DNA of 565 bases from Escherichia coli (lineage in GTDB: Bacteria; Pseudomonadota; Gammaproteobacteria; Enterobacterales; Enterobacteriaceae), in the NCBI RefSeq assembly GCF_003334335.1, contig NZ_QOWQ01000171.1; one strand, 5' to 3'. How positions within the stretch are numbered: position 1 is the first letter of the stretch; every line of letters begins with the position of its first letter. The translations under genes and the position numbers were made by a program. Shown here in pieces: positions 1 to 565 of this stretch. A model generated the notes under the pieces. It ran no database searches. It saw only the letters and a program-made list of their open reading frames with translations, and had not been told where the DNA came from.

Positions 1-552
1 CGCCTGGTTAAACGTCAGCCCTGCCGCCTGCCCGGCTCTGGAGAGCGTCAGCATACGATCGGCAGTCAGTCCGGCCTGATTGCCGGAAAGGACCAGCGTT
101 TTATTAAATTCTGAAAGCGTGGAATCCCCCTGGTACCAGGCGTACGCCAGCGCACCTGTCGCCACCGCCAGCGAGGTGACCCCGACCATCGGCAGGCTGA
201 TCGCACCGGCAAGCCCCCTGAACATGGGGATCATCCCGCCGAAGGAGTCCTTCACCTGACCGCCCTGTTGCAGCAGGATGAGCCAGGGATTCTGACCACC
301 GGCAAGCTGCGTGGCGATATCCGTAAACTGTGCGGGCAGGGTACGCATGGCTGCTTTATACTGCCCGACGGAAATCCCGGCTTTTTGTGCGGCCAGCGCC
401 TGACGGTTCAGACTCTGCTCAACGGCACCGGCGGTTTTTCTGGCGTCGGTATCCAGTCCTGAAAAATGACGCCTTACCCGGCTCATCTGCTCATCGAAAC
501 GGGCCGCATCCAGACTCAGGTCAATAACAAGATCACCAACCGGCTGGGACAT
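1..552 (-). CDS. H: Tail tape measure protein, lambda gpH-like; N-terminal 184 codons only, 3' end lies beyond position 1 of the window
   Basis: Seen in sequence: the minus-strand frame is open from ATG at 552..550 to the window edge (184 codons, no stop, checked codon by codon). Recognition: the translation closely matches my recollection of the lambda gpH N-terminus (MAEPVGDLVVDLSLDAARFDEQMARVRRHFSG..., ...AGGQSPWLILLQQGGQVKDSFGGMIPMFRGLAGAI...), with scattered, mostly conservative substitutions. The start is preceded by a strong Shine-Dalgarno. Identity level is not computed; it needs an alignment. Confidence 0.92.
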   Translation of the reverse strand, partial: MSQPVGDLVIDLSLDAARFDEQMSRVRRHFSGLDTDARKTAGAVEQSLNRQALAAQKAGISVGQYKAAMRTLPAQFTDIATQLAGGQNPWLILLQQGGQVKDSFGGMIPMFRGLAGAISLPMVGVTSLAVATGALAYAWYQGDSTLSEFNKTLVLSGNQAGLTADRMLTLSRAGQAAGLTFNQA

Positions 553-560
553 ATCTCACA

Positions 561-565
561 CCTCC
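561..565 (-). promoter_or_regulatory. Shine-Dalgarno ribosome-binding site for the tape measure gene (GGAGG, 8-nt spacer to ATG)
   Basis: Seen in sequence: the minus strand reads GGAGGTGTGAGATATG, with GGAGG 8 nt upstream of the ATG at 552..550. Inference: this is a canonical enterobacterial SD with appropriate spacing. Confidence 0.6.

Follow-up and report, generated by a model that had tools for sequence, protein, structure and literature searches.

How lambda DNA passes across two membranes is a 50-year-old open question, and the builder of the periplasmic channel is now known: gpH*, from the tape measure protein gpH. The 2025 Ur-lambda study (PMC12617516) attributes this channel to hexameric gpH* and fits a gpH* hexamer into it. 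The same study describes gpH residues 116-140 as hydrophobic and as a potential transmembrane domain, favoured by some predictors and not by all, and names a weaker transmembrane candidate at 691-712. It tentatively assigns gpH's N-terminal segment to the outer membrane, a placement presented as "by no means definitive". It also recalls that gpH* is fully protease-resistant once ejected into LamB liposomes; this is evidence on the whole protein. Structural views of the protein come from its other end: in the solved lambda and T1 structures the tape measure is modelled only at its C-terminal tip and its N-terminal parts are unmodelled, and the Ur-lambda study resolves only distal, unassigned gpH* chains, with the tape measure protein six-fold in the lumen.

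A second line of work approaches the same protein from the cell. A preprint on the membrane nuclease SNIPE (10.1101/2025.11.03.685801) reports that TurboID-ManZ labels gpH during injection and that gpH A304V abolishes the requirement for ManYZ. In phage Bas14, escape from SNIPE variants maps only to the tape measure: Q100P, A105E, V117D, and deletion or duplication of 144-150. The SNIPE domain concerned is cytoplasmic, and the Bas14 tape measure is <20% identical to others in that collection.

Here we examine an allele of this protein. The window, by which we mean the whole 565-base stretch of DNA under analysis, is 100% identical to DNA of Escherichia phage PhiR5_1 (PV340545.1) and 95-98% identical to that of many Stx2a-converting and lambda-like phages. 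It holds the following features of the tail gene cluster:

1..552, minus strand: codons 1-184 of gene H, the tail length tape measure protein; ATG at 552..550, frame open to the window edge
561..565, minus strand: Shine-Dalgarno-like GGAGG, 8 nt upstream of the H ATG; the minus strand reads GGAGGTGTGAGATATG
533..565, minus strand: 3' end of gene T, last 11 codons, after the PhiR5_1 annotation; T provides the T portion of the G-T tail assembly chaperone
1..393, minus strand: the part of TMP_2 (PF06791) inside the window, residues 54-184, from hmmscan

Gene H extends past window position 1, and the window contains its 5' part only. By sequence comparison, the product is a lambda-type tape measure protein gpH, as the initial annotation had proposed. 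Residues 1-183 are near-identical to lambda gpH (PDB 8iyk_H sequence) in a gap-free match at E 2.6e-103, and lambda residue numbering therefore applies directly to the window protein. Pfam TMP_2 covers H residues 54-256 (hmmscan, E 8.2e-69, model positions 2-207/208), Tape_meas_lam_C (PF09718) covers residues 631-705 of the frameshift-corrected full protein (E 3.3e-21), and PHROG tape measure families match at E 1.7e-208 and 7e-148. The corrected length of 857 aa, against 853 aa for lambda gpH, is likewise consistent with a lambda-type tape measure.

The neighbourhood agrees with this identity. The annotated order in PhiR5_1 is V, G, T, H, M, L, K, I, with H between the tail component T and the tail tip protein M; this is the lambda-type position, behind the G/T chaperone genes and ahead of M, L, K and I. 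The T stop codon (TGA, 535..533) lies inside H, giving a T/H start overlap of 20 nt (minus strand, window 533-552), which suggests that translation of the G-T chaperone product is coupled to that of the tape measure protein. In the PhiR5_1 locus, T runs from 4533 to 4946 and the H CDS ends at 4552, with locus position 4001 corresponding to window position 1. A search for promoter-like and terminator-like sites in the window found none. Plus-strand open reading frames of 59-65 aa were set aside as antisense to a strongly conserved coding frame.

The PhiR5_1 record itself splits the H annotation into two CDS (locus 2219-4552 and 1980-2219). The split comes from a frameshift of 1 nt where five G's follow one another (ACGGGGGTAAATATGAA), at L001 about 2281-2341, minus strand, around H codons 737-757 and outside the window. 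A shift of frame at about these codons gives back the lambda-like GGKYEPAGIVHRGEFVFTKEATSRIGVGNLYRLMRGY, and the frameshift is more likely a sequencing error in the homopolymer than a biological one.

The subject of this report is a hydrophobic segment in the N-terminal part of H, which, with its surroundings, comprises:

133..234, minus strand: hydrophobic segment, residues 107-140, MIPMFRGLAGAISLPMVGVTSLAVATGALAYAWY, from translation and hydropathy
127..216, minus strand: strictly uncharged core, residues 113-142 (30 aa), with R112 (window 217-219) before it and an acidic flank, 143-148, after it
190..195, minus strand: Leu120-Pro121, a conserved proline position and a predicted helix break or kink within the segment
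235..375, minus strand: the most conserved motif of the family, residues 60-106, AMRxLPAQFTDIxTQLAGGQxPxxIxLQQGGQxKDxFGG, directly N-terminal of the segment

The initial annotation had placed the segment at these nucleotides and residues, and the placement is exact: on the minus strand, 234..133 is in frame with the ATG at 552..550. The numbering 107-140 holds because MIPMFRGLAGAISLPMVGVTSLAVATGALAYAWY is in frame with this ATG, which stands behind GGAGG; a plus-strand reading of the same coordinates gives a meaningless translation. The annotation's description of the segment as Gly/Ala-rich and largely uncharged is fair. Among the 34 residues there are 7 Ala, 4 Gly, 2 Ser and 2 Thr, and R112 is the single charge. 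It had also described a continuous hydrophobic stretch long enough to span a membrane, and this is what the core offers: 30 uncharged residues, where a transmembrane helix calls for at least about 19 consecutive apolar and uncharged ones. The maximum of the Kyte-Doolittle average over 19 residues (KD19) is 1.71, at 113-131, against a classical threshold of 1.6.

Two of these properties were compared with shuffles of the full H protein. An uncharged run as long as 113-142 arose in 3 of 5000 shuffles. The height of the KD19 peak was matched in 636 of 5000 (13%) and is not rare, because H is an Ala-rich protein; peak height was therefore left out as evidence against chance. The stronger evidence against chance is the conservation of the property across distant homologues, described below. 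Over the segment, the Eisenberg mean hydrophobicity is about 0.6 and the helical hydrophobic moment about 0.05 (0.03-0.1), so the segment is uniformly apolar and not amphipathic. The Hessa apparent free energy, taken as a simple scale sum, is +3.4 kcal/mol, which makes the segment marginal for a transmembrane helix of the translocon type. Pairs of the small-xxx-small kind are abundant in it.

Elsewhere in H, and outside the window, there is one other apolar stretch: a Gly-rich region at about 687-720 with KD19 1.2-1.5. It matches the weaker transmembrane candidate of lambda, 691-712, near the gpH* cleavage region. The uncharged run of this second stretch, 699-747, is 49 aa long.

To follow the segment through the family, a word-indexed homologue search returned mostly near-identical E. 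coli fragments, and an exhaustive search of 1.84 billion cluster representatives was used instead. It yielded 4332 representatives related to H at E<=1e-3. We aligned 111 relatives that cover the domain (median identity to the query over all 111, 33%) and restricted property statistics to the 103 that are <60% identical to the query.

The initial annotation had proposed a comparison of the segment's conservation across lambdoid tape measure proteins, and the answer is divided: hydrophobic character, length and lack of charge are kept across the 103 relatives, and the sequence itself is variable, at 2-3 bits of entropy per column. The segment is gap-free in these distant homologues and thus of fixed length. 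Charged residues make up 0-3% of columns 113-139, except for column 122, where they reach 23%; about half of the segment residues are Gly, Ala, Ser or Thr; position 112 is K or R in 84% of the relatives; and column 120 holds Pro in 67 of 103. KD19 reaches 1.6 or more in 71% of homologues. The Hessa sum has a family median of +3.05 and is <=0 in only 2%. In 96 of the 103 full-length homologues, hydropathy along the whole protein is highest in the segment, and in 89 of 103 no second region reaches KD19 1.6. Of the 14 cases with such a second region, 12 have it 120-180 residues before the C-terminus, as in lambda (687-720). Since the segment is the only strongly apolar element in almost every family member, the helix is an obvious handle for mutagenesis and topology mapping.

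The start of TMP_2 varies, from residue about 1 to about 400 in proteins of 600-2000 aa (P0130, P0161, P0169, P0217 and others). The hydrophobic helix is consequently not always near the N-terminus; in phage T1 the corresponding region is 179-312.

The segment had also been assigned to the best-conserved part of the protein. This is roughly right, in that it adjoins the best block; the block itself is 60-106. Mean identity to H among 9 full-length lambda-like relatives is 0.88 for 60-106, 0.51 for 107-140 and 0.39 for the whole protein, so that the motif is conserved far more than the helix that follows it. In the alignment A1 (108 sequences), Q75, D78, G86, Q96, G97, Q99 and D102 are invariant, and Q64, A68, R70, P73, T77, L83, Q95, G98, F104, G105 and G106 are conserved at 90% or more. 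We found no function assigned to motif 60-106.

The role of an uncharged stretch of fixed length can be considered for each stage in the life of the protein. The earliest is assembly, and the initial annotation had offered a chaperone-binding surface as one meaning of the segment: an apolar stretch gripped and shielded by gpG/gpGT before the tail tube polymerises. According to a review, the tape measure protein is bound by gpG and by the G portion of gpGT, neither of which is found in the virion; in the cytoplasm, an apolar helix left exposed would presumably have to be shielded; and the G, T and H genes are adjacent, with T overlapping the H start. The same review, however, has gpG on multiple regions of gpH, with many gpG per gpH rather than one site, and we found no link between binding and residues 107-140. 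The chaperone families are, moreover, highly diverged, whereas the properties of the segment are fixed across the TMP_2 family. As the main role of the segment, chaperone binding is thus very unlikely; as an early role, it is compatible with a later one in a membrane.

The arrangement of residues within the segment is informative on later stages. Family-wide, bulky hydrophobic residues occupy positions 107, 111, 114, 118, 121, 125, 128, 132, 135 and 139, a strict alternation of 4 and 3. Mean bulky occupancy on this heptad stripe is 0.83, against about 0.2 at other phases, and the heptad-phase contrast of 0.60 was reached in 0 of 20000 permutations. This explicit test of heptad phase was used because Fourier analysis of bulky occupancy gave an ambiguous periodicity, with a peak at 156 degrees and an alpha-helical index of only 1.65. 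Positions outside the core are 70-98% Gly, Ala, Ser or Thr and essentially without charge. The segment therefore has the bulky a/d pattern of a soluble coiled coil and lacks the polar or charged residues that such a coil carries at b, c, e, f and g. Apart from its one heptad stripe, the helix presents small apolar faces, which sets it apart from a soluble coiled coil. A bundle embedded in a membrane would fit this combination, and so would a helix that is buried all round.

The second of these settings corresponds to a purely structural oligomerisation core: the centre of a hexameric or trimeric bundle in the tail lumen, and later of a water-soluble periplasmic tube, that would never enter a bilayer. 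The small residues would permit close packing all round, and the membranes would be crossed by gpI helices and ManYZ. Strict heptad spacing, abundant small-xxx-small pairs and a marginal insertion energy are what such a core would show. It also draws on gpI, which has strongly predicted transmembrane helices and a proposed role in opening the outer membrane, and on the AlphaFold3 hexamer of gpH 1-319, which is a tube (PMC12617516), together with the six-fold tape measure in the lumen. Against it, soluble coiled coils are polar or charged at non-core positions, and here almost no charge is seen at these positions across 103 homologues; hydropathy peaks in the segment in nearly all members of the family; and gpH* is fully protease-resistant in liposomes, which contain no ManYZ. 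We regard a role confined to oligomerisation as the main rival to a membrane role, possible but with the odds clearly against it.

Flanking charges add little on orientation. On the N side the flank carries a net charge of +0.96, against -1.07 on the C side, and in 95 of 103 relatives the former is the more positive. Only acidic residues produce this asymmetry; K+R counts do not differ between the flanks, and for this reason the positive-inside rule gives no topology. As evidence of topology, the acidic C-terminal flank is weak.

Structure prediction supports a helix at limited confidence. AlphaFold2 (AF2), run on the alignment of 108 sequences, gives a mean pLDDT of 75 and helices at 62-84, 89-104, 107-117 and 120-155. 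Confidence dips over the segment, where the three 10-residue blocks of 111-140 average 56, 50 and 61 and values at 120-124 are <50. The initial annotation's hydrophobic helix is thus predicted, as 107-117 and 120-155, with the segment helical at pLDDT 50-61. The findings that would have spoken against that annotation, namely predictions of neither a transmembrane nor an amphipathic helix, or poor conservation among homologues, are not what we observe.

The part of H that follows, residues 150-290, is confidently predicted as an all-helical domain (pLDDT 80-97). Searched with Foldseek, the PDB gave no significant match to the AF2 model (best E 0.5), and a sequence search of the PDB returned entries of lambda gpH and T1 gp38 only, none of them with a solved structure that covers the segment. 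The core fold of TMP_2 is structurally uncharacterised, and the domain 150-290 is without a significant match among solved structures.

Taken with the conservation of its properties, these data make one reading plausible and the best supported, with a probability of roughly 0.5: that the TMP_2 domain has one strongly apolar helix, namely the segment, which forms the membrane-embedded part of the DNA conduit. In the virion, the helix would belong to the end of the tape measure oligomer nearest the head, within the tail tube, where the bulky residues of its one heptad stripe would pack helix against helix and the remaining faces would present small apolar residues (Gly, Ala, Ser, Thr) rather than polar ones. 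When the receptor opens the tail, gpH* would be expelled and would build a trans-envelope DNA conduit, and the helix would then form the membrane-embedded portion of this conduit. The favoured site would be the inner-membrane end, with motif 60-106 reachable from the cytoplasm and the following domains forming the periplasmic tube.

That segment 113-140 specifically enters a membrane, and which membrane this is, we infer. The initial annotation had suggested a membrane-interacting element; an apolar and conserved helix stands behind this suggestion, and it is tempered by the marginal Hessa sum of +3.4 and by the fact that only some predictors call the segment transmembrane (PMC12617516). A membrane role also has against it the low AF2 confidence, and the heptad is equally expected of a coiled coil that resides in the lumen.

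The choice of membrane can be addressed through Bas14 (TheodorHerzl, a Dhillonvirus; MZ501107), whose tape measure (L003 11523-14165) is homologous to H over residues 36-748 at E 4.7e-55. With an offset that is constant at +25 in this region, the Bas14 escape sites correspond to H Q75, which is an invariant column, A80, I92 and 119-125. The three substitutions thus fall inside motif 60-106, and the equivalent of the 7-residue deletion or duplication, 119-125, falls inside the hydrophobic segment. In Bas14 the segment, 138-165, comprises 28 uncharged residues and has KD19 1.94. Since Bas14 tolerates the loss or gain of 7 residues, the exact length of the segment is not essential in the laboratory. 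We have not found this mapping of Bas14 onto H stated in the literature.

As an alignment-based argument, the mapping suggests that the N-terminal TMP_2 region, helix included, may work at the inner and not the outer membrane, and the escape mutations could act indirectly. A fuller and more tentative version, which we would not back at even odds, is that the TMP_2 helix spans the inner membrane while motif 60-106 is exposed to the cytoplasm, leads the DNA end in and is recognised by SNIPE. This inner-membrane arrangement, which draws on the Bas14 escape mapping (H Q75, A80, I92 and 119-125), would reverse the orientation of the model tentatively put forward in the Ur-lambda study.

That model has the helix insert in the outer membrane beside the tail tip, and it is the C-terminal part of gpH* that reaches the inner membrane. 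There, the AlphaFold3 hexamer of residues 1-319 fitted the cryo-ET density slightly better, and the authors cite the hydrophobic stretch 116-140 (PMC12617516). Their own caution about this placement has been quoted above. In T5, moreover, it is a C-terminal stretch of pb2* that is put in the outer membrane, and its lambda analogue is about 687-720; the Bas14 SNIPE-escape sites and the A304V change that confers ManYZ-independence all lie in the N-terminal third. An outer-membrane anchor is accordingly unlikely, if somewhat less so than chaperone binding as the main role. The Bas14 mapping makes a prediction in lambda: changes at 75, 80, 92 and 119-125 would alter SNIPE sensitivity or ManYZ dependence.

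In sum, lambda gpH is already known to have this feature, of which the window carries another allele, that of PhiR5_1; our observation comes back to something that the literature has named, in a textbook protein. The additions made here are the family-wide conservation of its properties, the pattern of a heptad with small residues, and the Bas14 mapping.

Comparison with described tape measures places the segment as follows. Lambda gpH is the closest: its residues 107-140 differ from those of the window only at S119T and V125A, and the two share numbering, Pfam architecture and tail-gene context and show no material difference. The tape measure of phage T1, gp38, has a TMP_2 domain with the homologous apolar segment, T1 179-312 aligning to H 39-172, and Bas14 138-165 aligns to H 113-140. 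In both T1 gp38 and Bas14 the domain stands behind N-terminal extensions, which differ in length, and cryo-EM does not resolve the N-terminal part of T1 gp38. Bas14 is reported to do without a specific non-essential inner-membrane protein, whereas lambda needs ManYZ.

More distant systems resemble the segment in concept. T5 pb2 is also a tape measure stored in the lumen and expelled on receptor binding, with a hydrophobic segment proposed as a membrane channel. Its stretch, however, is about 46 residues long, contains two predicted transmembrane helices, lies at the C-terminal end of the mature protein beside the cleavage site and is proposed to insert in the outer membrane; the H segment is one helix of about 28 residues at 113-140 of 857 and does not belong to the T5 pb2 type. 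By position, the better analogue of the T5 stretch is lambda 687-720. In the lactococcal siphophage TP901-1, the tape measure has hydrophobic regions at I390-Y460 and F591-V679 that are predicted to span the membrane, and deletion of the first abolishes infectivity. These regions have three predicted spans each, lie in the middle of a protein of a different family and serve in a Gram-positive host; their membrane role, like that of the H segment, is putative.
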